Shown: positions 3,568 through 29,610 of the stretch, piece after piece
Numbering within the stretch: the first letter of the stretch is position 1
How the letters are laid out: each line of letters begins with the position of its first letter
Assembly (NCBI GenBank): GCA_964463245.1
Contig: CAYXBU010000004.1
Location: forward strand, 1 to 55,467
DNA: 55,467 bases
Source: an uncultured Clostridium sp.
GTDB lineage: Bacteria > Bacillota > Clostridia > Oscillospirales > CAG-272
Direction of reading: 5' to 3'
The notes under the pieces: model-generated
What the model was told of the DNA's origin: nothing
Database searches by the model: none
Seen by the model: the letters and a program-made list of their open reading frames with translations, nothing else
Translations under genes and position numbers: made by a program

Positions 3568-5652
3568 TTACTCGCGGTAGAGAAAATTGAACCGCCCGAT
3601 GGGCGCTGTCGACCCGTTCTCGTAGAAGTCCATGACCTCTGGCTTCTGCATATGGTCGCTCCACTTGAACTCAAAGTCCAGCTTGCCGACCGGCATATAG
3701 CTGCGGGGCAGGGCGACCGTCAGGCTCTTGCCGTTGACGTGCAGGGCGACCCTGCCGAGGGACTGCCAGGTAAAGCTGCCCGTCTGCGCGGTCGGGAGGT
3801 AGGCCTCCAGTGTGGCGCGACCTGCGGGGGCGGGCAGACGGCCGATGACCAGATCGTAGCCCTCCCAGCCGGTCTCTCGCTTGCGGTCGGTGTTGATGAA
3901 CAGGGTCATCCAACCCTCCCCCTCGCGCGGGGTGATGGGTTCGGCGCAGGTGACATGGAAGTAGACATAGTCGGCATCCCGCGCGACCTGCGCCTCCACG
4001 ATGTCGTTGCGCCCGCTGGTGTTGACGTAATGGTAGCCCTTGAAACCGTCCCAGTCGCGGTGCAGGGTCAGACCGCGCGGGGAGCGGTAGACAGGAGTCA
4101 CGTCCCGCCACTGACGCTCGCCGCCGGCCACACGGATGGTCTTCTCGGGGGACACCGCCTGACGGGCACCCGCTCCCTTGAAGCGGCGGATGTTGTGCGC
4201 CAGCTGGAGGTAGTAGGTGTCCAGGTAGCCGTCCCTGTCCATCTCAATGTCGCGGCTGTGCTCGCGGTCGTATTGATCCACCATGGCCAGCTGGGTGGAG
4301 TCGTTGTCCTTGAGCCACGGCTCGTGGAACTGCCCCATGATCCACTCGTTCCAGCCCGTGACGAACACCAGGTCGGGGTCAAGGTCAATGGCGCGATCCC
4401 ACTGCTCCTGCACATTGTAGCCGTACTTGTAGGAGTCACCGTTCAGGTGTGCAAAGCCGTCTCGGCCGGTGTAGCTCCGCCCGAAGGTGTCCTTCGCGTT
4501 GAAGTGGGTACAGATGCGTTCGGGGTTGGCGTTCTGCCCGACCCCCACCACGACCTCTTCGCAGCTGCCGTCGGGGCGGGTGACATACTTGTTCTGCGGG
4601 TAGACCTCCAGCCAGCCCCACTGGTCGGGGCGGGTGGCTCCGCCTGCGTACAGGGGTTGTCCCGGTCGGAAGGTGAAGAAGTTGCGGATCTCGTCCAGCA
4701 GCTTGGTGTCGCTTTCGCACAGCCCGACCTCGGGCAGAGCCTCGGGGTAGGCCATGACCAGCGGCTTGCCGTCCACGCGGAACCACAGGTCGGAGTACAG
4801 CCCCGGCTTGTACAGGTTCTGGTACAGGGCACGGAGCATCAGGTCGGTCTCGTGCATGGGACCGAAGTTCATCATGAAGGCGACCTGCGGGGTGCGGATG
4901 CCGTCCTCGCGCGCCTCGTGCAGACCTTGCAGGAGCGGCTCGTAAGCATCCCGCCAGAGCAGGGCACCGTTGGTGCAGTCGAACATGATCATGTCCACCC
5001 CTGCGGCGGCCAGGAGGGCGGCATGATGGCGAATGATCCACGGGTCGGAGTTGCGGTAGAAGCCATAGAACGGCTCATGCCAGTGGCACTGGAAGGGACC
5101 CTCGCCCCACGCGGGGTGATCCTTGCGGTACTCGGCGGCGGGGTATTGATCCAGCACGTCCACCACGTCCACGGGGCGCAGGTGCGCGTGGGACTCCCGC
5201 CATGTCCAGTAGAAGATACCTACCTTCTTATCCCGCCGCTTGCCCCGCACATCCTCCACCGAGGCGGCCTTGCGCCCCAGCATATCCGTGACCTCCCAGC
5301 TCTCGGAGGCGAAGTCGAGCAGATCCTTCTCGGGGGTCGGGGTATAGGTGGACGGCGGGTAGGCCTCCTCGGGGGAGACCGAGAGGGCGTACAGCTTGCC
5401 GCTCCGCTGGAGCTTGACCGTGACCTCATGTATGCCGACCGTTTCGTCGATGGCGAACACCACCTCGGTGGTGGGCTTTCCGTCGCTGGAAAGAGCCGTC
5501 GCGCCGATGGTCTTTCCGTCGGCGAACAGGATGGCGAAGCCGGTGTTCCCGGCATCCGAGAAGGTCAGGCGGGCACTGCGCGCACCGGTGCCGAAATCCA
5601 GCTGTCCTGCGCGGTAGATGCGATTTTCTGTATCGAATATCAGGTCTGTCAT
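3568..5652 (-). CDS. Putative cytoplasmic glycoside hydrolase (N-terminal beta-sandwich/CBM-like domain + TIM-barrel-like core); family not assignable
   Basis: ORF track 3568..5670. ATG 5652 (MTDLIFDTENRIY...) has AAAGGA 9 nt upstream, while ATG 5670 has no RBS. Shows GIFYWTW, DMIMFDCTNG and WNEW motifs typical of uncharacterised GH-like families. It sits 14 nt upstream of the beta-helix gene, so the two are probably co-transcribed. Confidence 0.7.
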   Translation of the reverse strand: MTDLIFDTENRIYRAGQLDFGTGARSARLTFSDAGNTGFAILFADGKTIGATALSSDGKPTTEVVFAIDETVGIHEVTVKLQRSGKLYALSVSPEEAYPPSTYTPTPEKDLLDFASESWEVTDMLGRKAASVEDVRGKRRDKKVGIFYWTWRESHAHLRPVDVVDVLDQYPAAEYRKDHPAWGEGPFQCHWHEPFYGFYRNSDPWIIRHHAALLAAAGVDMIMFDCTNGALLWRDAYEPLLQGLHEAREDGIRTPQVAFMMNFGPMHETDLMLRALYQNLYKPGLYSDLWFRVDGKPLVMAYPEALPEVGLCESDTKLLDEIRNFFTFRPGQPLYAGGATRPDQWGWLEVYPQNKYVTRPDGSCEEVVVGVGQNANPERICTHFNAKDTFGRSYTGRDGFAHLNGDSYKYGYNVQEQWDRAIDLDPDLVFVTGWNEWIMGQFHEPWLKDNDSTQLAMVDQYDREHSRDIEMDRDGYLDTYYLQLAHNIRRFKGAGARQAVSPEKTIRVAGGERQWRDVTPVYRSPRGLTLHRDWDGFKGYHYVNTSGRNDIVEAQVARDADYVYFHVTCAEPITPREGEGWMTLFINTDRKRETGWEGYDLVIGRLPAPAGRATLEAYLPTAQTGSFTWQSLGRVALHVNGKSLTVALPRSYMPVGKLDFEFKWSDHMQKPEVMDFYENGSTAPIGRFNFLYRE

Positions 5653-5705
5653 AGGGATACATCCTTTCATGACTGATTTGCGTGCAGCTGCTCTGCACTG
5701 CTATC

Positions 5706-5734
5706 ATCCTACCACATTTTGGCGAGAAAGTCAA
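5706..5734 (-). promoter_or_regulatory. Promoter TTGACT-17-TAGGAT (TGG extended -10) for the GH/beta-helix operon
   Basis: rc of 5729-5734 is TTGACT and rc of 5706-5711 is TAGGAT, with a 17-nt spacer. About 50 nt upstream of the ATG at 5652. Confidence 0.5.
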
Positions 5735-5828
5735 CCGGTTTCAAGCAATTATTCGACCTTTTATACAATTTCGGACGACCACCTGCGGGCTGCTCGGCTC
5801 GATTTTTTACAAAAAAAGCGATTTACCC

Positions 5829-5857
5829 TTTACAAATGCCTCCATTCGTGCTATAAT
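5829..5857 (+). promoter_or_regulatory. Promoter TTTACA-17-TATAAT (TGC extended -10)
   Basis: TTTACAaatgcctccattcgtgcTATAAT, 55 nt upstream of the ATG at 5912. Confidence 0.55.
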
Positions 5858-5911
5858 ATCCAAGTACGAAGCCCACCGATCGAGATCGGTGAGCGAGAAA
5901 GGAGTATGATC

Positions 5912-13269: not shown

Positions 13270-14301
13270 TCAGAGCGTGTCGGCTATATCCAGGATCAGA
13301 CGCTCGGTCTTCTCCCAGCCGATGCAGGGATCGGTGATGGAGCGACCCAACTCCTCATGGTCGGAGATGCTCTGGGAGCCATCCAAAAGGTAGCTCTCGA
13401 TCATCAGACCCTTGACCAGGCGGCGCACATCCTCCGAGTGGCGGCGGCTGTGGAGGACCTCCTTGGAGATGCGGATCTGCTCCAGATACTTCTTGCCGGA
13501 GTTGGCGTGGTTGGTGTCGATGATGGCGGCGGGATTCTCCAGCCCCGAGGCGGCGTACCGCTCGGCCAGCGCAAGCAGGTCTTCGTAATGGTAGTTCGGG
13601 TAGGAGCGACCGTACTGGTCGACATACCCGCGCAGGATGGCATGGGCGTAAGGATTGCCCTGGCTCTTGACTTCCCAGCCGCGATAGCAGAAGATGTGGG
13701 AATGATGTGCGGCGGTGATGGAGTTCATCATGACCCCGATGTCCCCGCCGGTCGGGTTCTTCATGCCCACCGGGATGTCCAGACCGCTGGCGGTCAGGCG
13801 GTGCTGTTGATCCTCCACCGAGCGGGCACCGACGGCGGTATAGGCCAACAGGTCGGACAGGTAGCGGTGATTCTCCGGGTAGAGCATTTCATCGGCGCAA
13901 GCCAATCCGGTCTCCTCCAGGGCGCGCATATGCAGGCGGCGGATGGCCAAGATGCCCTTGAGCAGGTCGGGGGCGGCGTTGGGGTCAGGCTGGTGCAGCA
14001 TCCCCTTGTAGCCGTCACCCGTGGTGCGGGGCTTGTTGGTGTAGATGCGCGGGACGATCAAGAGCTTGTCCGCGACCTGCTCCTGTACGCGGCGCAGGCG
14101 GTGGATGTACTCCAGAACCGTCTCCTCGTGGTCGGCCGAGCAGGGACCGATGACAAGAATGAACTTATCGGTCTTCCCGGAGAGAATGTCCTTCAGCTCT
14201 GCGACGGTCTTCTCACGGGTGGCAACAGCCTTCTCAGAGGCGGGGTACTGCTCCTTGATCTCCTTGGGGATGGGGAGCTTGCGGTAGAATTGCATATTCA
14301 T
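13270..14301 (-). CDS. 3-deoxy-7-phosphoheptulonate (DAHP) synthase, class I-alpha (AroF/G/H type)
   Basis: 343 aa. IGPCS, KPRTT, GARSVEDQQHR and PVGMKNPTGG align by eye to E. coli AroG motifs. Confidence 0.9.
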   Translation of the reverse strand: MNMQFYRKLPIPKEIKEQYPASEKAVATREKTVAELKDILSGKTDKFILVIGPCSADHEETVLEYIHRLRRVQEQVADKLLIVPRIYTNKPRTTGDGYKGMLHQPDPNAAPDLLKGILAIRRLHMRALEETGLACADEMLYPENHRYLSDLLAYTAVGARSVEDQQHRLTASGLDIPVGMKNPTGGDIGVMMNSITAAHHSHIFCYRGWEVKSQGNPYAHAILRGYVDQYGRSYPNYHYEDLLALAERYAASGLENPAAIIDTNHANSGKKYLEQIRISKEVLHSRRHSEDVRRLVKGLMIESYLLDGSQSISDHEELGRSITDPCIGWEKTERLILDIADTL

Positions 14302-14312
14302 GGTATATCACC

Positions 14313-15200
14313 TCACTGTGTTTCGATGGGGGAATCGTTGGTCTGTGGTTTGTCAAAAAGGGAACGGCGGGCAGTCGCCAGCTGCATCTTCTCCCGCATT
14401 CCGGGGATGTCGCCGTCGGCCAGCAGGGAGCGGAAGGCCGCGAACTCGGCGGCAAATGCATCCATCTCGGCCAGCAAGGCCTCGCGGTTGGCGGAGAACA
14501 GCTCCGCCCACATGGCATCGTTGATCTTTGCAATGCGGGTCAGGTCGCGGAAGGAGTCTCCCGTGTACTTTTCCAGCCCGGTCATGTCGCCTGCATCCAT
14601 CAGGGTGACCGCGATGACGTGGGTCAGCTGGGACAGGAAGGCGATCATGCGGTCGTGCTCGGCGGGGGACAGCTCGGAGATGCGGGAGAAGCCCAGCACC
14701 CGCCCCAGCTCGCGGCAGGTCGCAATGGCCTCGGGGGTATTCCTCTCGGTGGGGGTGACGATGTAGTTCGCGCCGTGAAAGACACTGTCGTCACTGAAGG
14801 CGATGCCAGACCGCTCCCGTCCCGCCATGGGGTGTGCCGAGATGAATTCAACACCATCGGGGAGAAGGGCTTGCACCGTCTCCACCACCCCTGACTTCAC
14901 ACCGGTCACGTCTGTGACCAGTGCTCCGGGGCGGATGAGGTGACCGTAGGTTTGCACCCACTCGATGAAGGTGTGGGGGTAGAGGGCAAAGATCAGAAGG
15001 TCTGCCGCGCCTACATGGGCGGGATCGACTGTTGTGGTGGCGTGCTCCAAGATGCCGTTCTTGCGGGCGTAGCTCACATCGGCCTCCTCCTTGGTGATGG
15101 CCGAGACGGTGTAGCCCTGCCGCGTAAGGGCGCGGGCGTAGCCGCCGCCGATCACGCCGAGACCGATGATAAGGATATGGGTATGTTTGTCAAGCTTCAT
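14313..15200 (-). CDS. tyrA: Prephenate dehydrogenase
   Basis: 295 aa. N-terminal Rossmann IIGLGVIGGG and an HPMAG motif. Overlaps the aroA stop by 11 nt. Confidence 0.85.
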   Translation of the reverse strand: MKLDKHTHILIIGLGVIGGGYARALTRQGYTVSAITKEEADVSYARKNGILEHATTTVDPAHVGAADLLIFALYPHTFIEWVQTYGHLIRPGALVTDVTGVKSGVVETVQALLPDGVEFISAHPMAGRERSGIAFSDDSVFHGANYIVTPTERNTPEAIATCRELGRVLGFSRISELSPAEHDRMIAFLSQLTHVIAVTLMDAGDMTGLEKYTGDSFRDLTRIAKINDAMWAELFSANREALLAEMDAFAAEFAAFRSLLADGDIPGMREKMQLATARRSLFDKPQTNDSPIETQ

Positions 15201-16410
15201 GCTGTATGATCTCCAATTTGATGCCGAGCCTCGTCAGGTCGGCGAAGAAGGTGGGGTAGCTCTTGCACACCGCCTCGGCTCCCGTGATCTCCCCGCCGAG
15301 CAGAGAGAGCAGGACAGAGAGAGCCATGACGATGCGGTGGTCGTTATGCCCGCAGAGCGGGCGGGTCGGGGGATGAAGTTCGACGGGGGACACCGTGACC
15401 CTGTCCTCCTCCACCGTGACGGCCACGCCGCAGGCAGACAGCTCCTCGGCCATGGCGGCCGCGCGGTCGCTCTCCTTGATGCGGAGGCGTGCCGTACCGG
15501 TAAAGGTTCCGCCGTGGCATACCGCCGCGACCGCAAACAGGATGGGGGCAAGGTCGGGGCAGTCCCCGATGTGCAGGGTGGGACAGCCGTCGACCAATCG
15601 GGCAAAGTGGGCACGGTATACGCGGTCGCCCTGCAGGGAGTCGTCGTCCAGCCCCTCTATGACTACCGAGGAGCCGAACAGGTTCAGAGCATCCGGGAAG
15701 GCGGCATTCGACCAGTCCCCCTCTACCCATACCTCTCGTGGCGCATAATGTTGCCCGCCCGGGATGACCAGCGTCTGCCGATCCTCCCACGCGACCTTGA
15801 CACCAAAGGCGGCAAGGGCGCGGATGGTCATGTCGATATACGGGCGACTCTCCACGGCGGTGGAGATAGAGATGCGGCTGTCCTCCGACAGGAGGGGCAG
15901 AGCATAGAGCAGGCCGGTCAAGAACTGACTGCTGATGTTGCCGGCCACGGAATAGGCTCCCGTCCGCAGCTGTCCCTTGACCCGTAGGCGGCTGTTCTCG
16001 CGCTCGAAGAGCAGTCCCTGCTCGGATGCGATCTGCTCGTATACCGAGAGGGGACGGGCAAACAGCCGCTCGGCTCCGACAAAGACCGTCTCCTGCTCGG
16101 AGAGCAGGGCGATCGGAATGAGGAATCGCAGAGTACTGCCACTCTCGCGGCAGGGGAGGGTAGCCCCTGATAGGAATTGTGCAGGTCGGAGACCCCTTAC
16201 AGTGGAAACACCATCGGCAAGGGTGATATCCGCGCCCAGGGCGCGGAGGCAATCCACCGTGGCGGAAACGTCCTGACTATCAGCTATGCCGTGGACGCGG
16301 CTGGTCCCCTCGCACAGGGCGGCGGCCAGAAGCAGGCGGTGCGCCATGCTCTTGGACGGGGGAGCCTGCAGGGAGCCGTGGGCGGTGCTTTTCTCAATGC
16401 GGACACGCAT
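15190..16410 (-). CDS. aroA: 3-phosphoshikimate 1-carboxyvinyltransferase (EPSP synthase)
   Basis: ORF track 15190..16623 trimmed to ATG 16410 (MRVRIEKSTAHGSLQAPPSKSMAHR...), 1 nt after the aroQ stop. Confidence 0.9.
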   Translation of the reverse strand: MRVRIEKSTAHGSLQAPPSKSMAHRLLLAAALCEGTSRVHGIADSQDVSATVDCLRALGADITLADGVSTVRGLRPAQFLSGATLPCRESGSTLRFLIPIALLSEQETVFVGAERLFARPLSVYEQIASEQGLLFERENSRLRVKGQLRTGAYSVAGNISSQFLTGLLYALPLLSEDSRISISTAVESRPYIDMTIRALAAFGVKVAWEDRQTLVIPGGQHYAPREVWVEGDWSNAAFPDALNLFGSSVVIEGLDDDSLQGDRVYRAHFARLVDGCPTLHIGDCPDLAPILFAVAAVCHGGTFTGTARLRIKESDRAAAMAEELSACGVAVTVEEDRVTVSPVELHPPTRPLCGHNDHRIVMALSVLLSLLGGEITGAEAVCKSYPTFFADLTRLGIKLEIIQHEA

Positions 16411-16411
16411 A

Positions 16412-16849
16412 TCAGCTGTCCTCTCTGTTGCACAGCATATCCATGGCCTCGCGGTAGCCGTCGATGCCGTGACCGATGATCGAGGCCACGCAGGCCGCGC
16501 GGATATAGCTGACCTGTCGGAAGTCCTCGCGTTGACTGACATCCGAGATATGCACCTCCACCGTCGGGAGGGAGACCGCCTTGAGGGCATCCAGAAGGGC
16601 GATGCTGGTGTGAGTGTAGGCACCGGGGTTGATCACGATGCCGTCCGCACCGGCGAAGTAGGCTTCCTGTATCTTGTCCACAAGGTCGCCCTCATGGTTG
16701 GATTGATACAGGACAAGCTCCACGCCGCGCTGTGCGGCATGAGTCGTCAGCATCTCGCACAGCTCGGTGTAGCCGGTCTTTCCGTACAGGCTCGGCTCGC
16801 GAATGCCCAGCATATTGAGGTTGGGGCCGTTTATGACATATAGTTTCAT
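16412..16849 (-). CDS. aroQ: Type II 3-dehydroquinate dehydratase
   Basis: MKLYVINGPNLNMLGIREP...HISD. ATG 16849 overlaps the upstream stop (ATGA). Confidence 0.9.
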   Translation of the reverse strand: MKLYVINGPNLNMLGIREPSLYGKTGYTELCEMLTTHAAQRGVELVLYQSNHEGDLVDKIQEAYFAGADGIVINPGAYTHTSIALLDALKAVSLPTVEVHISDVSQREDFRQVSYIRAACVASIIGHGIDGYREAMDMLCNREDS

Positions 16850-18084
16850 GATGACCACTCCTTCAGAACAGCTTCTGTGACCTCATCGATGTCACCGGAT
16901 GCCTCCACGCGACAGTCGGCTGTTTCGACATAGCGCGGGAACCGCTCCTTGTAGCGACGGCGTATGGCCTCGCGGTCGGAGGCCAACGGGCGGTCGGCGG
17001 TGGGGGTCAGCAACTCGGGCGGGCGATCCAAGAAGAACAGCCGCCCGTTCTGCCGCAGGGCGCGGACATTCTCCTCACGCAGGATGCTCCCGCCGCCGGT
17101 CGCAATGACCACTCCCGTCAGGGGGGCAAGCTCGGCTCGGATGACCTGCGACTCCAGCTCTCGGAAGCCACTCTCCCCTTCGGCGGCGAACACGGCGGGA
17201 ATGCTCCGTCCGTGCGCCTCGATGCAGGTGTCGGCATCCAAAAATCGTCTCCTCAGCCGTGCGGCCAGCCGCCGCCCGATGGTGCTCTTGCCGGAGGCGG
17301 GCATACCCGTCAGGACGATGTTCTCCCGCCCTGTCAGCATTTTTTTGTACACTTCATCGGTCGTGCCGTCGGGGTAGACCGTGTCAAGGAACAGTTCGGA
17401 GGCGCGGACGGCCTGCGCCACCAGCATATACAGCCCACCCTCGGCGGGAATGCCGCGCTCGCGCGCATCCAGCACCAGATTCGTGCGGAGGGGATTGTAG
17501 ACCGCATCCACCACCCCGCAGAGGGCGGGGAAGTAGGACAGATCCAGCAGCCTGTCCTCGGCGTGGGGGTACATCCCGACCGGGGTGGTGTTGATGAGGA
17601 AGGTAATGTCGGTGTGATGTGTCTGCAGCTGCTCGTAGGTGATACTGCCGTCCCGTCCCGTGCGCCCGACCCGCAGGATCTCGCGTGCGCCCAGGCTCTC
17701 TGCCACGGCCACCGCCGTGCGGGAGGTACCGCCGGTACCCGTGACCGCCACCTTCTGTCCGCGCAGGTCTATATTCAGGCGGCGGATGAGGGCGGTCATG
17801 CCGTACAGGTCGGTGTTGTAGCCGCAGAGCATCCCGCCTTTGTTGACCACCGTGTTGACCGCGCCGATACGGGCGGCGGTCTCCTCCACCCGGTCAAGGT
17901 ACGGGATGACCGCCCCCTTGTAGGGGATGGTCACATTGATGCCGCAGAAGTCCCGCTTGCGGAGGAAGCCCTCCAGCGCATCGGGGGGCAGGGGGCAGAG
18001 CTCGTAGTCGGGGTTGCCCAGGAGGGCATGGATGTCAGCCGAGAAGCTGTGCCCCAAACGCTCGGCGATACAGCCGTACTTCAC
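16846..18084 (-). CDS. aroE/aroK: Bifunctional shikimate dehydrogenase / shikimate kinase fusion
   Basis: 412 aa. The N-terminal ~265 aa are AroE-like (GINVTIPYK, IGAVNT, GYNTD). The C-terminal ~150 aa are AroK-like (Walker A GMPASGKST). GTG start overlaps the aroC stop (GTGA). Confidence 0.85.
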   Translation of the reverse strand: MKYGCIAERLGHSFSADIHALLGNPDYELCPLPPDALEGFLRKRDFCGINVTIPYKGAVIPYLDRVEETAARIGAVNTVVNKGGMLCGYNTDLYGMTALIRRLNIDLRGQKVAVTGTGGTSRTAVAVAESLGAREILRVGRTGRDGSITYEQLQTHHTDITFLINTTPVGMYPHAEDRLLDLSYFPALCGVVDAVYNPLRTNLVLDARERGIPAEGGLYMLVAQAVRASELFLDTVYPDGTTDEVYKKMLTGRENIVLTGMPASGKSTIGRRLAARLRRRFLDADTCIEAHGRSIPAVFAAEGESGFRELESQVIRAELAPLTGVVIATGGGSILREENVRALRQNGRLFFLDRPPELLTPTADRPLASDREAIRRRYKERFPRYVETADCRVEASGDIDEVTEAVLKEWSS

Positions 18085-19199
18085 GATGTGGCCTCCTCGC
18101 GCAAGCGATCCGGGCAGGCCAGCACGTCGGTGCCATAGCGGCGGGTGATGAGGTCGGCCAGCCCCAGAGCCGTGACCGCCTCCACCACGGGGGCGGCGCG
18201 GTGCAGGATGGCGGGATCATGCCGCCCGTGCAGGGTCAGGGTCTCCTCCCGCAGGGTGATCGGGTCGGCTGTCCGCTGGGGCTTGAAGATGGAGGGGGTC
18301 GGCTTGACCACGACTCGGAAGCGGAGGGGCATACCGTTGGTGATGCCGCCGTTAATGCCGCCGTTGCGGTTGGTCAGGGTGACGACCCGCCCGTCGCGGA
18401 TGACAAAGGGGTCGTTGGCGGTGCTCCCGCGCAGGGTGGCAAAGCCGAAGCCGTCCCCGAACTCCACCCCCTTGACGGCGGGCACCGAGAACAGGAGCTT
18501 GGACAGCTCGCCCTCCACCGTGTCAAACCACGGTTCTCCCAGCCCTACGGGCAGACCGCTGACCAGGGTCTCCAGTATCCCGCCCACGCTGTCGCCGTCC
18601 TCGGCGGCGGCGCGGATGGCCTTGATCATGCGGATGCCCGCCTCGGCATCCAGCACGGGGAAATCCATTTGCGTAAGGCGGGGAAGGTCATCCGGGGTCA
18701 AGGGACAGGTGTCCTCCACCCCCGCGACCTGCGAGATGCGGGTACCGATGCAGATACCGGCATGAGACAGGGCAGGCTCTATGATGGCGGCGGCCGCCAC
18801 GAGCGCGGCGGTCAGACGACCCGAGAAGTGCCCGCCGCCCCGCCTGTCCTCGTAGCCGTGATACTTGCAATAGCCCGCATAGTCAGCGTGACCGGGGCGG
18901 GGCAGGAAGCCCTCGGATGCATAGTCTGCCGAGTGCTGACGGGTGTTGGGGATCAGGATGGTCAGCGGTGTGCCGGTCGTGTGTCCCTGCCATGCGCCGC
19001 TGAGGATGCGGAACTCATCCGGCTCCCGCCGCCCGGTGGACAGGTCATCCTTGGGACGACGACGCGCCAGCCGCGCGGCAATATGCCCCTCGTCGATCGG
19101 GATGCCGGGGGCAAGCCCGTCCAGCACTGCGCCGATGGCCTCCCCGTGACTCTCGCCGAACAGCGTGACGGTCAGGGCTGATCCAAACGTATTCTTCAT
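18081..19199 (-). CDS. aroC: Chorismate synthase
   Basis: ORF track 18081..19379 trimmed to ATG 19199 (MKNTFGSALTVTLFGESHG), which has AAAGGAA 8 nt upstream. The 60 extra N-terminal codons in the track read through repeat copy B. Confidence 0.9.
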   Translation of the reverse strand: MKNTFGSALTVTLFGESHGEAIGAVLDGLAPGIPIDEGHIAARLARRRPKDDLSTGRREPDEFRILSGAWQGHTTGTPLTILIPNTRQHSADYASEGFLPRPGHADYAGYCKYHGYEDRRGGGHFSGRLTAALVAAAAIIEPALSHAGICIGTRISQVAGVEDTCPLTPDDLPRLTQMDFPVLDAEAGIRMIKAIRAAAEDGDSVGGILETLVSGLPVGLGEPWFDTVEGELSKLLFSVPAVKGVEFGDGFGFATLRGSTANDPFVIRDGRVVTLTNRNGGINGGITNGMPLRFRVVVKPTPSIFKPQRTADPITLREETLTLHGRHDPAILHRAAPVVEAVTALGLADLITRRYGTDVLACPDRLREEATS

Positions 19200-19230
19200 G
19201 TGCTCAGTTCCTTTTTCGTTTCTTTTTTCT

Positions 19231-19380
19231 GGGGGGAACTTCCTGAAGGAAGTTTCCCCCGGACTCCTTTCAAGGACTTTTCCGATAATTTTCCTTGTCG
19301 AGGGTAGGCTTGATGACAGTCCTTCTTGTCTCCTTCGCTTATGTGGGAGCCGTGCCCCACAGTGTATTTGAAAAATCAAG
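19231..19380 (-). repeat. Intergenic repeat family 1, copy B (inside the aromatic operon, sense orientation)
   Basis: The rc reads ...CAAATACACTGTGGGGCACGGCTCCCACATAAG...AAAGTCCTTGAAAGGAGTCCGGGGGAAACTTCCTTCAGGAAGTTCCCCCC. It fills most of the 195-nt aroB-aroC gap. Confidence 0.75.
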
Positions 19381-19394
19381 TACTTTTCGATTGT

Positions 19395-20408
19395 CTATCG
19401 CATCTCGTATGCAAGCAATTTCGCCTCCAGCTCGGAGAGCGGGGTCTTCCGTATCTCCCCGTGCCCGATCTTGTCCACGGTCACGGCATACACCGACTCC
19501 GCCTCCCGCTTCTTGTCATGCAGCAGGTAGGGGAACAGGGTGGACATGGGGGCGGGCATCTCGGTCGGGAGACCCAGCCGCGCCCAGATCGGCAAAAGTC
19601 GCTCCCGAACAGCGGGGGCGCACATCGGGAGCATCCCGAGGGCAACGCTCTCCCCGTGGGTCAGACCCCCCAAGCCCTCATGGGCTTCCAGCGCGTGCCC
19701 CAGCGTGTGCCCAAAGTTGAGGATGCGGCGAAGTCCTGCTTCCCGCTCGTCCTCTGCTACCACGGCGGCCTTGATCGCTACGGCGCGGGAGACCAGCTCC
19801 TCCATCGGCGGCAGGGGGTCTTTTTCAAAGAGAGCAAAGCCCTCGGCATCCGAGGTCAATGCCATCTTGACCGCCTCGGCCAGCCCCGAGGAGACCTGGC
19901 GGGGTGGGAGAGTAGCCAGCGTGTCGCAGTCCGCGACTACGCGGCGGGGCTGATAAAAGGAGCCGACGATGTTCTTCACGCCGCCCAGATTGACGGCGGT
20001 CTTGCCGCCGACCGAGGAGTCCACCATGGAGAGAACCGTGGTGGGCAGGTTGTAGAAGTCGATCCCCCGCATATAGATCGAGGCGGCAAAGCCGGCCAGA
20101 TCACCGACTACGCCGCCGCCTACCGCGACCACGCAGTCGGAGCGGGAGAAGCCGTGCTCCAGCATGGCGGAGAGCAAGGTCTCCAGGCAGGAAAGGCTCT
20201 TGGAACCCTCCCCCTGCGGGACGGTCACGCAGACAGGCTCTGCCGCCGCACGGCGGACGGCCTCGGCGTAGGCGGCGGGAACGCCGCTGTCGGTCACGAT
20301 CAGCACCCGCCGCCGAAGCGGGATCAGCTCCCCGATCCGCGCAAGCAGACCGTGTCCGACCAGCACGTCATAGCTGTCCTTTCCCAATTCTACCCGAACG
20401 CTCGTCAT
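19395..20408 (-). CDS. aroB: 3-dehydroquinate synthase
   Basis: ORF track 19395..20432 trimmed to ATG 20408 (MTSVRVELGKDSYDV...), an ATGA overlap with the pheA stop. Motifs GGGVVGDLAGFAA and GHTLGHALE. Confidence 0.9.
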   Translation of the reverse strand: MTSVRVELGKDSYDVLVGHGLLARIGELIPLRRRVLIVTDSGVPAAYAEAVRRAAAEPVCVTVPQGEGSKSLSCLETLLSAMLEHGFSRSDCVVAVGGGVVGDLAGFAASIYMRGIDFYNLPTTVLSMVDSSVGGKTAVNLGGVKNIVGSFYQPRRVVADCDTLATLPPRQVSSGLAEAVKMALTSDAEGFALFEKDPLPPMEELVSRAVAIKAAVVAEDEREAGLRRILNFGHTLGHALEAHEGLGGLTHGESVALGMLPMCAPAVRERLLPIWARLGLPTEMPAPMSTLFPYLLHDKKREAESVYAVTVDKIGHGEIRKTPLSELEAKLLAYEMR

Positions 20409-21496
20409 GCGCGTGCTCCTTCCCGATAGCAACCGACGATCTTGAGCTGCTCGCAGCAGGGAGCCAGATCGGAGAGCAGTGCCTTTCCCTCCGGCTCGTA
20501 CAGGTTGCCGTCTGCCTCGGCAAAGAAATAGTATTGCCAGAACAGCTCCTTCATGGGGCGACTTCGCAGGGTACGCAGGTTGAAGCCGTGCGAACCGATG
20601 ATGTCAATGGCACGAGCCAATGCCCCCGCCTGATTGGGCACGGTAAAGAGGAGGATGGAGTGGACTCCCTGCTCGGCAGACGACGGGCGGTGGGGGGTGC
20701 GGGAGAAGACCGCGAAGCGGGTGGAGTTGGTGTTGGCGGTATTGATATTCGTGGCCAGCACCTCCAGCCCGAACAGCTCCGCCGCCTCCCGTGAGGCGAT
20801 GGCGGCGACCGTCCGATCCTCGGAGTTGGCAACGAAGCGGGCGGCCAGTGCCGTGTTGGAGTGCTCCTCGGTGCGGAAGCCGTGCTTTTGAATGTAGGCG
20901 GCGCACTGACCCAGTGCCTGCGGGTGGCTGACCACCGTGCGGATGTCCGCCAGCTGTGTGCCGGGCTTGGCCAGCAGATCCTGCGTGACCGGCAGCTCGG
21001 TCATCTCGTTGACCGACAGGGAACCCGAGAACATCAGGTCGGTCACGGCACCCACCTCGCCCTGAAAGCTGTTCTCCACCGGCAGGAGCACCAGGTCGCA
21101 CTCCCCCTCCTCCACTGCACGGTAGGCGGCGGCGAAGTCCGGGTAGGGAACCGCCGTGGCGGCCGGGTAGAGCTTCCGCACGGCTAAGTGGGCGAAGGCT
21201 CCCTCGGTGCCCGCGTAGGCGACACGAACCCCCGAAAGCAGATACCGCTGGTATTGGCGGGAGACGGACATGGTGTCCCTCAGAAACTCAACATAAAAGG
21301 AGCGCAGCTCCTCCGGTACCGACTCGGCGCGCCGACTGACAATGTCGGCCTCTCGCGCCGCGTCCAGTATGGGTAGCCCGCGCTCTCCCTTGAAGGCGGC
21401 TACCGACTCGGCCGCCCGCATCCGTCGGCAGAACAGCTCTGCCATCTCGCGATCGATCTGATCAATCTCGGCTCTTGCCGCTTGTAACTCGTTCAT
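20405..21496 (-). CDS. pheA: Bifunctional chorismate mutase / prephenate dehydratase (CM-PDT-ACT)
   Basis: 363 aa. N-terminal CM helix (LQAARAEIDQIDREMAELFCRRM), a PDT core (TRF, ESRP-like SRPMK) and a C-terminal ACT region. Confidence 0.88.
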   Translation of the reverse strand: MNELQAARAEIDQIDREMAELFCRRMRAAESVAAFKGERGLPILDAAREADIVSRRAESVPEELRSFYVEFLRDTMSVSRQYQRYLLSGVRVAYAGTEGAFAHLAVRKLYPAATAVPYPDFAAAYRAVEEGECDLVLLPVENSFQGEVGAVTDLMFSGSLSVNEMTELPVTQDLLAKPGTQLADIRTVVSHPQALGQCAAYIQKHGFRTEEHSNTALAARFVANSEDRTVAAIASREAAELFGLEVLATNINTANTNSTRFAVFSRTPHRPSSAEQGVHSILLFTVPNQAGALARAIDIIGSHGFNLRTLRSRPMKELFWQYYFFAEADGNLYEPEGKALLSDLAPCCEQLKIVGCYREGARA

Positions 21497-21570
21497 GTAC
21501 CTGCCGCGGATGCTCCGCGTCTCCTTTGTGATGTATATCTTTTATTGATGAATATCTGCCATCGCTCGGA

Positions 21571-22773
21571 TCATTGTCCGGGGGTCAACCCGTATTCCTG
21601 CGCCAGAGCCATGAAGCCGGGCAGAGCCAGCTCAACTGTGCGGCGGCTGACACAGTAGGCGATCCGCACATAGCCGGGACAGCCAAAGCTGTCCGACGGG
21701 ACAAACAGGATGCCGTGGGTCTTGGCTCTCTCCAGGAAGGCATTGGCATCCGACTCGGGGGACTTCAAAAAGAGGTAGAAAGCACCCTTCGGGCAGACTG
21801 CCTCGAATCCGTAAGAGGTCAGCTCATCATACAGCAGGCGGCGGTTGCCGTCATAGACCGACAGGTCTGCCGTCTTGCCGAGGCAGGCGGGGATCATGCG
21901 CTGGAAGAGCGCGGGGGCGCAGACATAGCCCATCCCTCGCGCCGCGCCCATCAGAGCCTCGTAGACCGCACGGGCATCCGCCGCACCGGGGTGCACCAGC
22001 ACATACCCGATGCGCTCGCCCGGCAGGGACAGCGACTTACTGAAGGAGTAGCAGACCAGCGTGTTCTCGTAGTAGACAAGCGGTGCCGGGACAGACTTCC
22101 CGTCGTACACCAGCTCGCGGTACGGCTCGTCCGACACGAGGTAGATGGCGTGTCCATAGGTCGCCGACTTCTCACGGAGCAGAGCCGCCAGCGCGGTCAG
22201 CTCCTCGACCGACAGGATAGCCCCGGTGGGGTTGTTGGGGGAGTTGATCACCACCAGCCTTGTGTGCGCCGTGATGGCGCGGCCGAGAGCTTCCATGTCC
22301 GGGGCAAAGCTCGGTTCACGGGCGGGTACCTCCACGACCCGTGCGCCGGCGTGCTCCAAGAACACCCGGTATTCCGGGAAGCAGGGGGTGAGGATGACAG
22401 CCTCGTCCCCGTCTCCGGGGGAGAGCAGAGCACCAAAGCAGGCCGTCAGAGCGGCGGCGGCTCCCACTGTCAGGTAGATCAGGGCGGGGTCGACCTCGAC
22501 TCCCGTGGTCTCGCGTGTATAGGCGGCGATGGCGGCACGGACGGTCGGGTCTCCCGCCGCTGTGGTGTAGCCGTGCAGGGCGGTCGGGTCACTGTCTCGC
22601 AACAGGGTCTCCAGGGTCTCGGTGACCACCGATGGGGGCGGAACCGAGGGGTTGCCGATGGTGAAATCCAGCACGGCATCCTCGCCCGCCTCCTGCTTGC
22701 GGCGGGTCGCATACTCAAACAGCTCCCGAATGGCCGAGCGATTCGCCCCCAGCCTGCGGGCTGACTCATTCAT
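21571..22773 (-). CDS. Class I/II pyridoxal-phosphate aminotransferase (likely aromatic/aspartate aminotransferase)
   Basis: ORF track 21571..22854 trimmed to ATG 22773 (MNESARRLGANRSAIRE...). Motifs INSPNNPTG and SFSKSLSLPGERIGY (PLP lysine). Confidence 0.85.
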   Translation of the reverse strand: MNESARRLGANRSAIRELFEYATRRKQEAGEDAVLDFTIGNPSVPPPSVVTETLETLLRDSDPTALHGYTTAAGDPTVRAAIAAYTRETTGVEVDPALIYLTVGAAAALTACFGALLSPGDGDEAVILTPCFPEYRVFLEHAGARVVEVPAREPSFAPDMEALGRAITAHTRLVVINSPNNPTGAILSVEELTALAALLREKSATYGHAIYLVSDEPYRELVYDGKSVPAPLVYYENTLVCYSFSKSLSLPGERIGYVLVHPGAADARAVYEALMGAARGMGYVCAPALFQRMIPACLGKTADLSVYDGNRRLLYDELTSYGFEAVCPKGAFYLFLKSPESDANAFLERAKTHGILFVPSDSFGCPGYVRIAYCVSRRTVELALPGFMALAQEYGLTPGQ

Positions 22774-22819
22774 GTGAAAGCACTTCCTTTTCTTGTGGGT
22801 TGCGGTCGCTTGTCGCGGC

Positions 22820-23614: not shown

Positions 23615-24512
23615 GGTGTTTTCCTCCCTTCCCGGAGTGGAGGCCGGTGCGGATCTTGCCGGCAACATAGGGGACACCCAAGAAGATCACGACCACCACG
23701 GCAGACAGTGCCTTGAGCAGGTCGGCATCAAGTCCTAAGAAGATGACGGTCTGGTAGACGAAGTAGTAGATGACAGCACCGACCATGACGCCACCCAGCT
23801 TGATGGCAAAGTTGGAGCCGATGTGCTTGACTACCGCCTCGCCGATGACCACGGCGGCCAGACCGATGACCACGGCGCCGCGTCCCATGTTGATGTCGGC
23901 GGCACCCTCATACTGACAGCGGAGACCGCCTGCCAGCGCGACCAGCCCGTTGGACAGAGCCAGCCCGATGATCTTGCAGACACCGGTGTTGATGCCCTGT
24001 GCGCGGCTCATGATGGGGTTGCAACCGGTCGCACGGATGGCACAGCCCAGCTCGGTGCCGAAGAAGAGGTACAGAAGCCCGACTAAGATCACCGCCGCGA
24101 TGCCCAGGAGGATCAGGGCGGAGGGGATGTTCATCTGGGACAGCAATACGGGGTAGTTACGGGCAGGGAGAGCCTGATTGGCTTTTCCCATGATCTTCAG
24201 ATTGACCGACCACAGCACCATCTGGGTCAGAATACCCGACAGGATGGCGGGGATGCCCAGCCCGATATGCAGGGCACCGGTCACACACCCGGCGATCAGC
24301 CCGGAGGCGAAGGCCGCCAGCAGTGCCAGCCATGGGTTCACACCGCTCCTCATGAGCATGGTGCAGACAGCCGCGCCGGTGCAGATCGAGCCGTCCACCG
24401 TCATATCGGCCATGTCCAGAATACGGTAGGTAATGTATACGCCCAGTGCCACGATGCCCCAGGTCAATCCCTGTGCTGCGGCACCCGGCAGGGAGGATAG
24501 CCAGTCTAACAT
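23607..24512 (-). CDS. ABC transporter permease (BPD/LivH-like fold)
   Basis: 301 aa, polytopic. Lies directly between the binding-protein and ATPase genes. Confidence 0.85.
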   Translation of the reverse strand: MLDWLSSLPGAAAQGLTWGIVALGVYITYRILDMADMTVDGSICTGAAVCTMLMRSGVNPWLALLAAFASGLIAGCVTGALHIGLGIPAILSGILTQMVLWSVNLKIMGKANQALPARNYPVLLSQMNIPSALILLGIAAVILVGLLYLFFGTELGCAIRATGCNPIMSRAQGINTGVCKIIGLALSNGLVALAGGLRCQYEGAADINMGRGAVVIGLAAVVIGEAVVKHIGSNFAIKLGGVMVGAVIYYFVYQTVIFLGLDADLLKALSAVVVVIFLGVPYVAGKIRTGLHSGKGGKHHA

Positions 24513-24563
24513 ACGGTCAACTCCTTACATTTCGTGATGGATGTTCAAGCGGACGGAGTACCG

Positions 24564-25541
24564 TCACTCGCCGATCTTCTTGTAGTCAGCGGGGGGCGTG
24601 ATGCCCAGCTCGGCGCAGACATCCGCGTTGTATTGCTTGGTGGCACTTGCATACTCAATGGGCATCTCGGAAATATCTGCCTCGCCCTTGAGGACCTTGA
24701 CTGCCATCTCACCGGTCTTGTAGCCGAGATCATAGTAGCTGATGGCAAGGGTCGCCGCGCCGCAGGCATTGCAGATACCGGATTCTCCCGCGATGACCGG
24801 TACCTTGGCGGGACGAACCACTCCGCCGATGGCCTCGGCGCAGGTGGCGGCGGTGTTATCGGTCGGGACATAGATGACATCGCTGTTGTTGGTGGCGGTC
24901 GTGGTCACCGAGATGACATCGTTGGAGTCCGAGAAGGGGAAGCGAGTGCAGACAAGACCCTTGCCGGTCAGGTATTCCGCCACGACCTTGACTTGATACT
25001 CCGAGTTCGGCTCGGCCGAGCAATAGAGGAGTCCCACCTTCTCGGCATTCGGGAACAGCTCCATGAGCATATCCGCCTGCTCAGTCAGGGGAGCGAGGTC
25101 GGAGGTGCCGGACACATTACCGCCGACGGTTCCGTTGAAGTCCTTGAGCCCCAGCGCGAAACCGTATTCGGTCACGGAGGTGCCCAAGATCGGGATGGTC
25201 TCGGTCGCGTTGTAGGCGGCCTGAAGAGCCGAGGTGGCATTGGCCATGATCAGATCCACCTTCTTGGATACAAAGGAATTGACGATGGTGGTACAGGTCT
25301 GGGTATCCCCTGCGGCGTTCTGCAGGTCAAAGGTCACATTCTCCTCGCCCAGCCCGGCGATGACGGCATCCTGAAAGCCCTTTGTGGCGGCATCCAGCGC
25401 GTCGTGGGTGGTCAGCTGGCAGATGCCGATGGTGTACTTGGTCTTGGCGCCGCAGGACGCGAGCGGCAGGACGGATGAGAGAGCCAGCACCAGTGCCAGC
25501 AGGATAAGACATACGGAACGACGGGTCTTGACGGTCTTCAT
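24564..25541 (-). CDS. ABC transporter substrate-binding lipoprotein, ABC_sub_bind (PF04392-like) family
   Basis: ORF track 24564..25643 trimmed to ATG 25541 (MKTVKTRRSVCLILLALVLALSSVLPLASCG, lipobox LASC), which has GGAGGAG 6 nt upstream. IGICQLTTHDALDAA, NVSGTSD and DVIYVPTDNT match the family pattern from memory. Confidence 0.85.
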   Translation of the reverse strand: MKTVKTRRSVCLILLALVLALSSVLPLASCGAKTKYTIGICQLTTHDALDAATKGFQDAVIAGLGEENVTFDLQNAAGDTQTCTTIVNSFVSKKVDLIMANATSALQAAYNATETIPILGTSVTEYGFALGLKDFNGTVGGNVSGTSDLAPLTEQADMLMELFPNAEKVGLLYCSAEPNSEYQVKVVAEYLTGKGLVCTRFPFSDSNDVISVTTTATNNSDVIYVPTDNTAATCAEAIGGVVRPAKVPVIAGESGICNACGAATLAISYYDLGYKTGEMAVKVLKGEADISEMPIEYASATKQYNADVCAELGITPPADYKKIGE

Positions 25542-25589
25542 AGGAAGCTCCTCCAAAATGAATAGATTTGGATACGCGAGGGGGGGGGC

Positions 25590-25632
25590 GCGGTAAAAAA
25601 GCAAAAACCGCACGGACTTGCGATCCATGCGG
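25590..25632 (-). terminator. Leader (attenuator) intrinsic terminator
   Basis: RNA: CCGCAUGGA-UCGCAAG-UCCGUGCGG (9 bp, one GU) followed by UUUUUGCUUUUUU. It sits between the leader ORF and the binding-protein RBS. Confidence 0.8.
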
Positions 25633-25714
25633 CAACACCTCATACCTTTTGCTTTCCTTTGTAAGGACGGTCGGCTTTATGCAGGTACCTGTTCATGTGC
25701 ATCACAAATCGCTT

Positions 25715-25798
25715 TTACTTCGTTTCCATAAAGGAATAAAAGTAAAAGTAGCTAAAGCTGTAAAAGCGAACTGCCATGCTGTGAGCCATGCCTGCCAT
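25715..25798 (-). CDS. Candidate Phe/Tyr-rich leader peptide (27 aa) MAGMAHSMAVRFYSFSYFYFYSFMETK
   Basis: This is the 3' part of track ORF 25715..25954. ATG 25798 has GGGAG 8 nt upstream and lies about 30 nt downstream of a consensus promoter. 5 UUU and 4 UAC/UAU codons fall within 12 codons. The stop codon is embedded in a stem. Confidence 0.6.
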   Translation of the reverse strand: MAGMAHSMAVRFYSFSYFYFYSFMETK

Positions 25799-25831
25799 CT
25801 TCCGGTCTCCCTTCCGCTGAAAGTTGTATGG

Positions 25832-25860
25832 ATTATACCACATTCCCGCGCGGTTGTCAA
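25832..25860 (-). promoter_or_regulatory. Consensus promoter TTGACA-17-TATAAT (TGG extended -10) of the leader/ABC/aromatic operon
   Basis: rc of 25832-25860 is TTGACAaccgcgcgggaatgtggTATAAT. Confidence 0.7.
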
Positions 25861-25950
25861 GGGGTTTTTCGCTATTTTGTGTCATGGAAATGCATAAAAA
25901 TTGCAACTCGTGCGGGAAATGCCGGATATACGGGAAAAACGCGGGATCAT

Positions 25951-27006
25951 TCAATATTTGAACAGCTCGACGGCATTGGTACGCAGGGACATCTGCCGCG
26001 AGAGTGTCGGGTCAGCCTTCTGTGTCATGGAGAGGGTCACATGACGGAGGGACAGCCGCCGATTGTCGGGGTCGGTTTGAGGTCTCCCGATCTCCATCTT
26101 CACCCGTGAGCCGTTGAAGGCCGAGGCCGCCGACAGGCACTCGTATCCGCCCAGAAGACTGCCCATCCTGTCCCGCGTGCGGTAGACCGTCTCCAGCCCG
26201 GGGATGGGCTCGGCGATCCGCAGGGTCTCCACATCCATGTCCAGACGGATGGAAAGCGGCTCGGCGGACAGGGCATCGGGGGCATTGAGTGTAAAGGAGA
26301 CCATGCCGTCGTGGGAGGCATAGGTGCGCGCCATGGACAGACCGTACAGAAGAAAAGCCTCCCAGATGAGCGGGTGTGAGAAGAACACATCCTGCGTCGG
26401 CAGGAATCCGTTGTGCAGCTTCTCCTGCGCCTCGCACCCGATGGCGGTCGCAAAGGAGCATATGGCGGCGGCTATGGTACGCAGAGAGACGGTGGGTGCA
26501 TCGCCCTGCGGCAGGAGAAAGGGCAACCGCTCGGTCAGATCGTAGGTGGTCTCTCGCATGACCATGTAGGTCTCCGGGTCGCAACGCGCGCCGCCTCGCC
26601 GCCGTACCTCCTCGGATATGATCCAGTCGGGGTGTAAAAAGCCCCGGCAGGCGGCCGAGGCGGCACGGGTGACCGGTGCGTGGAAGTGGATCAGGAGTCC
26701 CAACCCGCAGGGGATATAGTAGCGCTTGGACAGCAGAGCCGGTCCGTGCGCGGTCATGATCAGGAGCGGGCGGGTCTCGCAGGAGGAGAACCACGCTCGC
26801 GCCTCGTCCGAGAAGTGGACGAAACGGTAGATGTTCTTGCCCGGCTCCCAAGTGCGGACGGGAGCGCGGGAGGCCACGATCTGGCCGGGCAGGACATCCA
26901 GCCCGAACAGGGCATAGCTGACGCCGTACACATACCCGGGCGGCAGGATCGCCTCCGGTGGATAGTTGAAGGACCATCGGGTGTATGTACTGGTGGTGCG
27001 GGACAT
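25951..27006 (-). CDS. Hypothetical protein (351 aa), no recognisable domain
   Basis: ORF track 25951..27153 trimmed to ATG 27006 (MSRTTSTYTRWSFNYPPE...), which has AAGGAGG 8 nt upstream. No TM helix or signal peptide. The overlapping track ORF 26012..27535 (Arg/Gly/Pro-rich) was judged spurious. Confidence 0.65.
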   Translation of the reverse strand: MSRTTSTYTRWSFNYPPEAILPPGYVYGVSYALFGLDVLPGQIVASRAPVRTWEPGKNIYRFVHFSDEARAWFSSCETRPLLIMTAHGPALLSKRYYIPCGLGLLIHFHAPVTRAASAACRGFLHPDWIISEEVRRRGGARCDPETYMVMRETTYDLTERLPFLLPQGDAPTVSLRTIAAAICSFATAIGCEAQEKLHNGFLPTQDVFFSHPLIWEAFLLYGLSMARTYASHDGMVSFTLNAPDALSAEPLSIRLDMDVETLRIAEPIPGLETVYRTRDRMGSLLGGYECLSAASAFNGSRVKMEIGRPQTDPDNRRLSLRHVTLSMTQKADPTLSRQMSLRTNAVELFKY

Positions 27007-29370: not shown

Positions 29371-29610
29371 CAAAACCCCGGAGACAGTGCTGACGGCACG
29401 GTTCTCCGGGGTGCATGATCGGATGGTCGGAGCAGTGCTACACCGACGACATATCATACACGGTTCCACCCAAAGGTTTCACTCGTATGCATTTTTTGTG
29501 GGGAATTCCCCTTCGCGCGGGCGGTACCTGTGACCGGTGCTGTTTGCGGGAAGGCTCTCAGCTTGCCCTTCCTCTCTGTGCGCCGCGCTCCGGTCGGCAT
29601 ATTCCGCGTG
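29371..29610 (-). promoter_or_regulatory. T-box riboswitch leader (Thr; candidate ACC specifier)
   Basis: The rc contains Stem-I-like AGAGAGG...GCUGAGAG, candidate ACC codons (AGCACCGG / GGUACCGC) and the T-box sequence AAACCUUUGGGUGGAACCGUG (29459-29479). It also has the terminator CCCCGGAGA-N18-UCUCCGGGG-UUUUG (29375-29411). Confidence 0.8.

Follow-up and report, generated by a model that had tools for sequence, protein, structure and literature searches.

A Phe/Tyr-codon leader upstream of aromatic amino acid transport and biosynthesis genes in Oscillospirales: a candidate ribosome-mediated transcription attenuator

A 55,467-nucleotide (nt) stretch of DNA from an uncultured Clostridium sp. 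(Oscillospirales, CAG-272; GenBank assembly GCA_964463245.1, contig CAYXBU010000004.1, positions 1 to 55,467), hereafter the window, carries on its minus strand a leader that encodes a short peptide rich in phenylalanine and tyrosine, ends in an intrinsic terminator and precedes the genes of a TrpX-like ATP-binding cassette (ABC) transporter. Judging from its sequence and from folding models, we consider it probable, at roughly 85%, that this element is a classical ribosome-mediated transcription attenuator sensing charged tRNA-Phe and tRNA-Tyr. The same logic underlies attenuation of the enterobacterial trp operon.

In the mechanism proposed here, transcription would begin at a consensus promoter, and a ribosome would load onto a leader open reading frame (ORF) of 27 codons. 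With ample Phe and Tyr, the ribosome would pass the Phe and Tyr (F/Y) codons, reach the UAA at 25717-25715 and cover the adjoining segment, region 2, which after release of the ribosome would re-pair with the F/Y-codon segment, region 1 (helix 1:2). With region 2 either covered or held in helix 1:2, the terminator at 25633-25607 (helix 3:4) would form and transcription would stop at its U tract. When Phe or Tyr is scarce, a stall within 25765-25730 would mask region 1, and the conserved core of region 2 would stay free to form helix 2:3 with the 5′ arm and loop of the emerging terminator, blocking the latter and allowing readthrough into the transporter genes and probably into the whole Phe/Tyr biosynthesis cluster behind them. 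Such a switch would presumably depend on stalling of the ribosome and on its timing relative to RNA polymerase.

The strongest evidence comes from a family of related leaders. Relatives of the binding protein were scanned with one genome per species, giving 80 loci, all from Clostridia and labelled mostly Oscillospiraceae, Eubacteriales or Clostridiales; individual loci are cited by L numbers. An F/Y-rich mini-ORF, the core and a terminator are shared by 37 of them, those nearest to the window, with the promoter and the Shine-Dalgarno (SD) sequence at matching distances: an equivalent of TTGACA...TATAAT is seen as far from the leader as in the window, and GGAAAGGAG stands where the window has GGGAG. 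The 14-nt core, GCGAUUUGUGAUGC, is exact in many of these loci and has up to three mismatches in others; UUUGUGAU is exact in all 37 and invariant in 32 of 32 aligned leaders, and the terminator apex of the relatives reads GGAYCACAARUCC. Most family counts given below refer to 38 aligned leaders and some to the alignment of 32. Searching the genome collection for the pattern of core plus apex returned 65 loci, about six of which, from unrelated phyla and without an F/Y ORF, are suspected chance matches, in agreement with the few predicted from the size of the collection and the information in the pattern. A covariance model built from 31 relatives with the window left out, spanning the F/Y run through the core, finds a single match in the window, 25774-25689(-) (58.5 bits, E 3.2e-11), and none other in the 55 kb. 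The same model scores newly found copies, including those linked to pheA and to a DAHP (3-deoxy-D-arabino-heptulosonate 7-phosphate) synthase gene, at 62-73 bits, and it gives no match at the six suspected chance loci or at transporter loci that have no leader. At least 72 distinct leader sequences were collected from Oscillospirales-type genomes, and more distant variants probably exist. Carriers of the family include the cultured Hominicoprocola fusiformis CLA-AA-H188/H269 (L114, L122) and Oscillibacter sp. ER4 (L111). Gapped comparison with four metagenome copies (L143-L146) shows no difference in the leader, so that these add no further information; the copies differ in the length of a poly-C tract just 3′ of the terminator (25580-25590, minus strand) and are otherwise identical. 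L010 contains at 1687-1751 a divergent member with an F/Y ORF and a variant core, UUCUUUUGUGAUGC, scoring only 26.9 bits with the model, and in L042 the F/Y ORF is truncated at the contig start.

Within the window, the leader has the parts that an attenuator of this kind would use (Table 1). The original prediction, drawn from the letters of the window, named a consensus promoter, a GGGAG-N8-AUG start, the 27-codon ORF and a downstream ribosome-binding site (RBS) on the minus strand, and all of them are read in the sequence where it placed them. The promoter is the sole such site within 24500-27000, and transcription probably starts near 25825. Nine of the twelve codons from 12 to 23 are F/Y codons, again as predicted, and all five Phe codons are UUU, a codon that accounts for only 27% of Phe codons across the window's genes (61% G+C). 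The segment around the stop codon, AAGUAAAAGCG, is complementary to two pieces of the codon run, CGCUUUUAC (25768-25760) and CUUUUACUU (25748-25740), both of which had been recognized from the outset. The long-range copy of region 1 forms with region 2 an isolated duplex of -18.1 kcal/mol, and this pairing is present in the minimum free energy (MFE) structure of the window leader. The terminator, which had been called strong, is a G+C-rich hairpin of 11 base pairs (bp) followed by UUUUGCUUUUUU, so that a premature 3′ end is predicted near 25595-25600; the RBS, GGAGGAG (25554-25548), lies about 40 nt past the U tract, and the binding-protein AUG is at 25541. As a whole, the window leader folds more stably than shuffled controls (z = -4.2), with none of 200 shuffles equal to it. 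No second copy of the core was found in a search across the window.

Translation signals and codon content are preserved throughout the family. An SD sequence, a start codon and an F/Y-rich ORF are present in 38 of 38 leaders, and together Phe and Tyr make up 45% of the codons 5′ of region 2 (196 Tyr and 148 Phe, with 3 Trp, among 765 codons). Insertions and deletions inside the F/Y run are multiples of three across the family. The alignment of orthologous leaders thus bears out the conservation of the F/Y run that the original prediction had named as a check, along with compensatory changes in both the terminator and the local form of helix 1:2.

These compensatory changes are extensive. In helix 3:4, the terminator present in all 38 leaders, 93.7% of the alignment cells are paired, 7 of the 11 pairs have changed on both sides, and 0 of 500 shuffles were as good. 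In the local helix 1:2, P2, formed by ACU(U/A)UUACUUU and AAAGUAA(A/U)AG, 95.8% of the cells are paired and 5 of 9 pairs are compensatory; one P2 pair alternates among AU (11), UA (10) and UG (6), following a switch between F and Y codons and its compensation on the other strand. Both P2 and the terminator are predicted independently by RNAalifold. The outer part of helix 1:2, in which a GCAAAUCG-type segment 5′ of the run faces CGAUUUGU of the core, is paired in 77.6% of the cells.

Helix 2:3, the antiterminator, can be drawn in two registers, each of which excludes the terminator. In register A, GAUUUGUGAU pairs with the apex AUCACAAGUC; pairing is seen in 91.9% of the cells, and nearly all members keep complementarity at 9-10 of 10 positions. 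Register B, which pairs GCGAUUUGUG (25712-25703) with CAUGGAUCGC (25629-25620), is the one originally proposed; it lies 5 nt further 5′ than register A, is paired in 85.3% of the cells, and has its pair C103:219 mismatched in 22 of 32 leaders. RNAduplex recovers register B with the additional 3 bp exactly as proposed in the window, at -16.8 to -18.7 kcal/mol, and there, with the loop CGCAA, it is the energetic optimum. It is not the register of the family: 36 of 38 leaders have register A as their optimum, and only the window has register B. The terminator loop CACAA is near-invariant in the family, its sole variation being an exchange of A and G opposite a U of the core, and such conservation of a terminator loop is hard to explain without pairing to the core. 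In the family, the antiterminator averages -15.3 kcal/mol and the terminator -20.3 kcal/mol; in the window, they have -18.7 and -18.3 kcal/mol, respectively. The family means resemble the corresponding values of the E. coli trp leader.

Folding under ribosome masks is consistent with the proposed switch under the assumptions that are classically made for attenuators. In ribosome-free RNA that still lacks the 3′ arm of the terminator, 30 of 38 leaders have the core paired with upstream sequence. With a ribosome footprint placed on the stop codon, the models give the terminator in 38 of 38 leaders, the window included, as had been predicted for a ribosome that reaches the stop. With a stall at any F/Y codon and the RNA 5′ of the ribosome made unavailable, the core is predicted to pair with the apex in nearly all leaders; for a mid-run stall in the window, on RNA that ends ahead of the U tract, the antiterminator is the MFE structure although the full terminator hairpin is present. 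Equilibrium folding of the full leader always retains the terminator; equilibrium MFE was judged the wrong test for a kinetic switch, and hence the classical treatment, in which the RNA behind the ribosome is removed and the transcript is cut before the 3′ arm, was adopted.

Several points weigh against attenuation by a stalled ribosome. Masking of the 29-nt footprint alone, with the upstream RNA left free, makes the antiterminator the MFE structure in just 15 of 38 leaders, and in the window, two of three stall positions yield the terminator if the U tract is part of the folded RNA. Because footprint-only masking favors the antiterminator in a minority of leaders, the attenuation model rests on kinetic and steric assumptions. 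The same holds for textbook attenuators, in which kinetics and the size of the ribosome likewise matter. Moreover, helix 2:3 lacks double-sided covariation, its support being one-sided compatible changes and the conservation of the loop; since the core never varies, compensatory change in this helix is impossible. Control of the distal genes in the window is something that we infer, given that the transporter operon of the relatives is without following aro genes. Finally, transcription and translation are reported to be largely uncoupled in B. subtilis, a situation referred to as 'runaway transcription' (PMC7858274).

The invariance of core and loop invites the idea of recognition by a factor acting in trans, for instance a protein, tRNA or small RNA, which would make the element a hybrid attenuator combining F/Y stalling with a second signal. 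We regard this as unlikely and, to our knowledge, no hybrid leader-peptide system of this type has been described. It is also improbable that the element is a factor- or ligand-dependent attenuator in the manner of TRAP, PyrR or a riboswitch, in which a protein, tRNA or metabolite would read the core, the loop or both, the F/Y ORF being incidental or a second input. That core and loop CACAA are conserved more strictly than plain pairing normally demands, and that the antiterminator is without compensatory changes, would fit such a mechanism, but the invariance is explained as well by a triple constraint, in that the core pairs with both region 1 and the apex while the apex also pairs inside the terminator. 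The universal SD sequence and start codon, the 45% share of F/Y and the indels in multiples of three would not be expected of an incidental ORF, the regulatory codons fit the products of the controlled genes, and no Rfam family is matched.

Rfam 15 matched no family over 24500-27000 at E<=10, with T-box, riboswitch and leader families included, and at the Rfam gathering threshold the whole window yields only two tRNAs, 50524-50597 and 50676-50747 (plus strand). The original prediction had named a known riboswitch or T-box over this region as grounds for rejecting it. For the leader, these scans rule out a known riboswitch, a T-box or an Rfam leader family (Phe_leader, leu/phe, and the Trp, His, Thr and Leu leaders). 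A T-box over the leader would have been detected, since the same method found one in L032, where a T-box of 103 bits (5651-5897) lies directly upstream of the orthologous binding-protein gene, at the position occupied elsewhere by the leader. If this T-box is laid out in the usual manner, GAA-UUC-A is its specifier and stands for Phe. A pattern screen for T-boxes 5′ of all binding-protein loci produced 3-4 candidates, of which Rfam confirms L032 only. T-boxes are also present in L048 and L051, there 3′ of the ATPase gene and controlling whatever follows.

Another reading takes the small ORF to encode a functional hydrophobic micropeptide or an arrest peptide with a ...KAICDAxxR tail, the hairpin acting as a plain terminator or serving RNA stability. 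The ORF does run through the core in 33 of 38 leaders, with the tail KV(I/K)AICDA conserved as amino acids and the stop 19 nt past the core. In other members, the same nucleotides are read differently: UGA within the core terminates the ORF in L003, L040 and L041 (...SDL-stop), the core lies in the third frame in L030 (RFVMS), and the window differs from L001 and L002 by a 2-nt indel that puts UAA immediately 5′ of the core, which is thus untranslated there yet invariant. Given that the frame varies among all three possibilities while the nucleotides stay the same, it follows that the core is conserved at the RNA level and that the C-terminal peptide is dispensable. The stop position, whose conservation in orthologs the original prediction had named as a check, is atypical in the window. 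Neither Pfam nor NCBIfam has a model that the leader peptides match, and a constitutive terminator 40 nt 5′ of the first gene and behind a consensus promoter would silence the operon. A peptide with a function of its own is thus highly improbable. The remaining suggestion, that the half-sites TTTGTGAT and ATCACAAA are halves of a DNA operator for a repressor, or that a mobile promoter cassette without regulatory logic has spread recently, is barely credible and was rejected: the inverted repeat does look like TGTGA/TCACA-type protein sites, and the core is identical in hosts whose binding proteins share only 60-78% identity, but the half-sites are separated by a variable 60-95 bp and fall within a transcribed structure 3′ of the promoter, the flanking stems covary in the manner of RNA, and the flanks have diverged normally, which argues against a recent cassette.

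Attenuation governed by F/Y codons is also in keeping with the genes that follow. In the window, the minus-strand gene string at 13270-22776 comprises a complete Phe/Tyr pathway, closely spaced or overlapping and without trp genes, and no strong minus-strand terminator was found downstream of the leader before 12233-12206. With this spacing and lack of terminators, the leader looks like the head of an approximately 12-kb operon for Phe/Tyr uptake and synthesis, in which the distal genes would be co-transcribed, and the content of such an operon fits the mixed Phe/Tyr codon run. An internal promoter could exist where aroA meets tyrA, as 15193-15166 resembles a promoter at 11/12 positions.

Table 1. 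Features of the leader and of the genes downstream of it in the window (minus strand throughout; sequences written as RNA except for the promoter)
Feature	Position	Remarks
Promoter TTGACA-17-TATAAT with TG extension, sigma-70-type	25860-25832	12/12 positions matched
SD sequence GGGAG of leader ORF	25811-25807	8 nt 5′ of AUG (25798)
Leader ORF	25798-25715	27 codons + UAA (25717-25715); encodes MAGMAHSMAVRFYSFSYFYFYSFMETK
Regulatory codon run, codons 12-23	25765-25730	5 Phe + 4 Tyr; proposed ribosome stall zone
Region 1, long-range copy GCAGUUCGCUUUUAC	25774-25760	Pairs with region 2 (25718-25703); putative anti-antiterminator
Region 1, local copy, F/Y codons ACUUUUACUU	25749-25740	Pairs with AAGUAAAAG(C) of region 2, helix P2
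Region 2, GUAAAAGC then core GCGAUUUGUGAUGC (25712-25699)	25718-25699	Proposed strand switching between region 1 and terminator
Spacer between core and terminator	25698-25634	Local hairpin, and GUCCUUAC...GGAAAG complementary to leader 5′ untranslated region/SD; seen in MFE
Region 3, proposed antiterminator target	25629-25615	Register B CAUGGAUCGC, 25629-25620; register A AUCGCAAGUC, 25624-25615
Intrinsic terminator, stem GCCGCAUGGAU/GUCCGUGCGGU, loop CGCAA	25633-25595	11 pairs, 25633-25607; U tract, 25606-25595
ABC substrate-binding lipoprotein, TrpX-like	25541-24564	First regulated gene; PF04392, E 1e-52
ABC permease	24512-23607	PF02653
ABC ATPase	~23617-22820	PF00005; start uncertain
Class I/II aminotransferase	22776-21571	Pfam
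pheA, chorismate mutase/prephenate dehydratase (CM-PDT)	21496-20405	Pfam
aroB, aroC, aroE-aroK fusion		Between pheA and aroQ; Pfam
aroQ	16849-16412	Read by eye
aroA, 5-enolpyruvylshikimate-3-phosphate (EPSP) synthase	16410-15190	Pfam
tyrA, prephenate dehydrogenase	15200-14313	Pfam
DAHP synthase	14301-13270	Pfam

The order of genes for binding protein, permease and ATPase is kept in all relatives, in which the leader usually precedes just these three transporter genes; neither aminotransferase nor pheA nor aro genes were found after the transporter in the relatives. The fused arrangement of transporter and aro genes therefore appears specific to the window, which looks like a fusion of a transporter unit with a pheA-aro unit. 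Separate units of the latter kind do carry the leader elsewhere, as it lies directly 5′ of pheA-aroB-aroC-aroEK in L090 and L095, of pheA-aroB-aroC in L110, of pheA in L124, and, in L101, of a DAHP synthase gene that has aroB and aroC behind it. The binding protein of the window scores 211 bits (E 2e-62) against NF041285, TrpX, for which the equivalog cut-off is 390; it is thus a TrpX homolog and not an equivalog, and a different aromatic specificity is likely. The two distinct sensors of charged tRNA found ahead of this gene, the F/Y leader and the Phe T-box of L032, point to one substrate class, and together they suggest that the transporter takes up Phe/Tyr.

Among known systems, the enterobacterial pheA (pheL) and pheST (pheM) leaders, Rfam Phe_leader, are the closest in architecture, having a short ORF with Phe codons and overlapping helices 1:2, 2:3 and 3:4; in pheA, the terminator precedes a CM-PDT gene, as does the leader in the four loci where pheA comes first. 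In contrast to Phe_leader, the family described here occurs in Clostridia, has no similarity to it by covariance model, and contains Tyr codons as frequently as Phe codons; in addition, most of its ORFs cross the antiterminator strand, and its commonest target is an ABC transporter. The mixture of codons has parallels in the E. coli thr (Thr and Ile) and ilvGMEDA (Leu, Val and Ile) leaders, in which codons of amino acids that share the controlled genes are combined, just as the present family mixes Phe with Tyr and the window operon holds pheA, tyrA and the common shikimate genes. The amino acids are different, however, the sequences unrelated and the phylum another.

Outside Proteobacteria, the passages that describe the uORFC-13-1 motif place it 5′ of aroF in Acholeplasma, with a U run coding for 'at least one' Phe by an intrinsic terminator, and report it only from Acholeplasma and environmental DNA (24 representatives) (PMC8632094). 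By this description, the likeness lies in an upstream ORF with one or more Phe codons, an intrinsic terminator, a DAHP synthase gene and a lineage beyond Proteobacteria, and the difference in Tyr codons, of which those passages make no mention (PMC8632094). Leader-peptide attenuators in Firmicutes, a phylum dominated by T-boxes, are rare but have precedents, including His leaders in bacilli of the B. cereus group (PMC2965389) and in Eubacteriales and Erysipelotrichales (PMC9413887), and a Leu-rich ilv-leu attenuator peptide in S. aureus (PMC5794164). Like the leader described here, whose place is taken by a Phe T-box in L032, these leaders occur where other lineages use T-boxes, and they differ from it in amino acid specificity, sequence and order (Oscillospirales here). 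In streptococci, the tryptophan ABC importer TrpXYZ is under T-box control (PMC9382623); there too, a transporter of the PF04392 family is placed under a 5′-leader sensor of tRNA charging, the present case differing in a translated leader instead of a T-box and in Phe/Tyr codons instead of Trp. No RNA elements were found with Phe or Tyr genes in a survey of Actinobacteria (PMC1262725).

A literature search found no description of the Oscillospirales element or of any leader with Tyr codons. The suggestion that an attenuator of this kind would be unusual and possibly undescribed in Clostridia accordingly holds for the element itself and has to be tempered for the class, since leader-peptide attenuators in Firmicutes are not unprecedented. 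What is new is the combined Phe and Tyr specificity, the host order, the main target (an ABC importer) and a sequence family of its own, the principle itself not being new; apparently for the first time in a leader peptide, the signal is carried by Tyr codons as well as by Phe codons. The family adds to gut Oscillospirales an uncatalogued but well-supported and widely distributed cis-regulatory element, absent from Rfam, Pfam and NCBIfam, and predicts Phe/Tyr as the substrate of a widespread TrpX-like ABC importer. Beyond its practical value for annotation, it defines an aromatic regulon, consisting of the transporter, the pheA-aro operon and DAHP synthase, in organisms that are genetically hard to study, and it could be a compact Phe/Tyr sensor for engineering. 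Given that a ribosome-dependent attenuator needs a ribosome that keeps pace with RNA polymerase, the family also constitutes a natural test of this coordination in Firmicutes, in contrast to the situation in B. subtilis (PMC7858274).

Other observations concern the surroundings of the ORF. The spacer at 25634-25698 is complementary to the leader 5′ untranslated region (UTR) and SD sequence at 25799-25826 (minus strand), such that a large hairpin could enclose the entire ORF. Across the 38 leaders, the duplexes between 5′ UTR and spacer have a mean z of -2.1, with 21 of 38 below -2 and the window at only -1.2. A hairpin of this kind might limit repeated translation of the leader. For the E. coli trp leader, a similar limit on re-translation has been proposed. 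Directly upstream of the leader promoter lies an ORF of 351 amino acids (25951-27006, minus strand) that has no Pfam match and is predicted by gene callers in the metagenome copies as well.

Further upstream, the region 29375-29583 (minus strand), 5′ of a 67-amino-acid ORF and thrS (29103-27169), gives a sub-threshold match to T-box Stem I (18.4 bits, E 0.1). A GGGTGGAACCGTG box is located near 29470, and a hairpin resembling a terminator, with its U tract, near 29400-29375. The region is probably a divergent T-box, in which case thrS would be under a T-box in this genome and the aromatic operon under a leader peptide.

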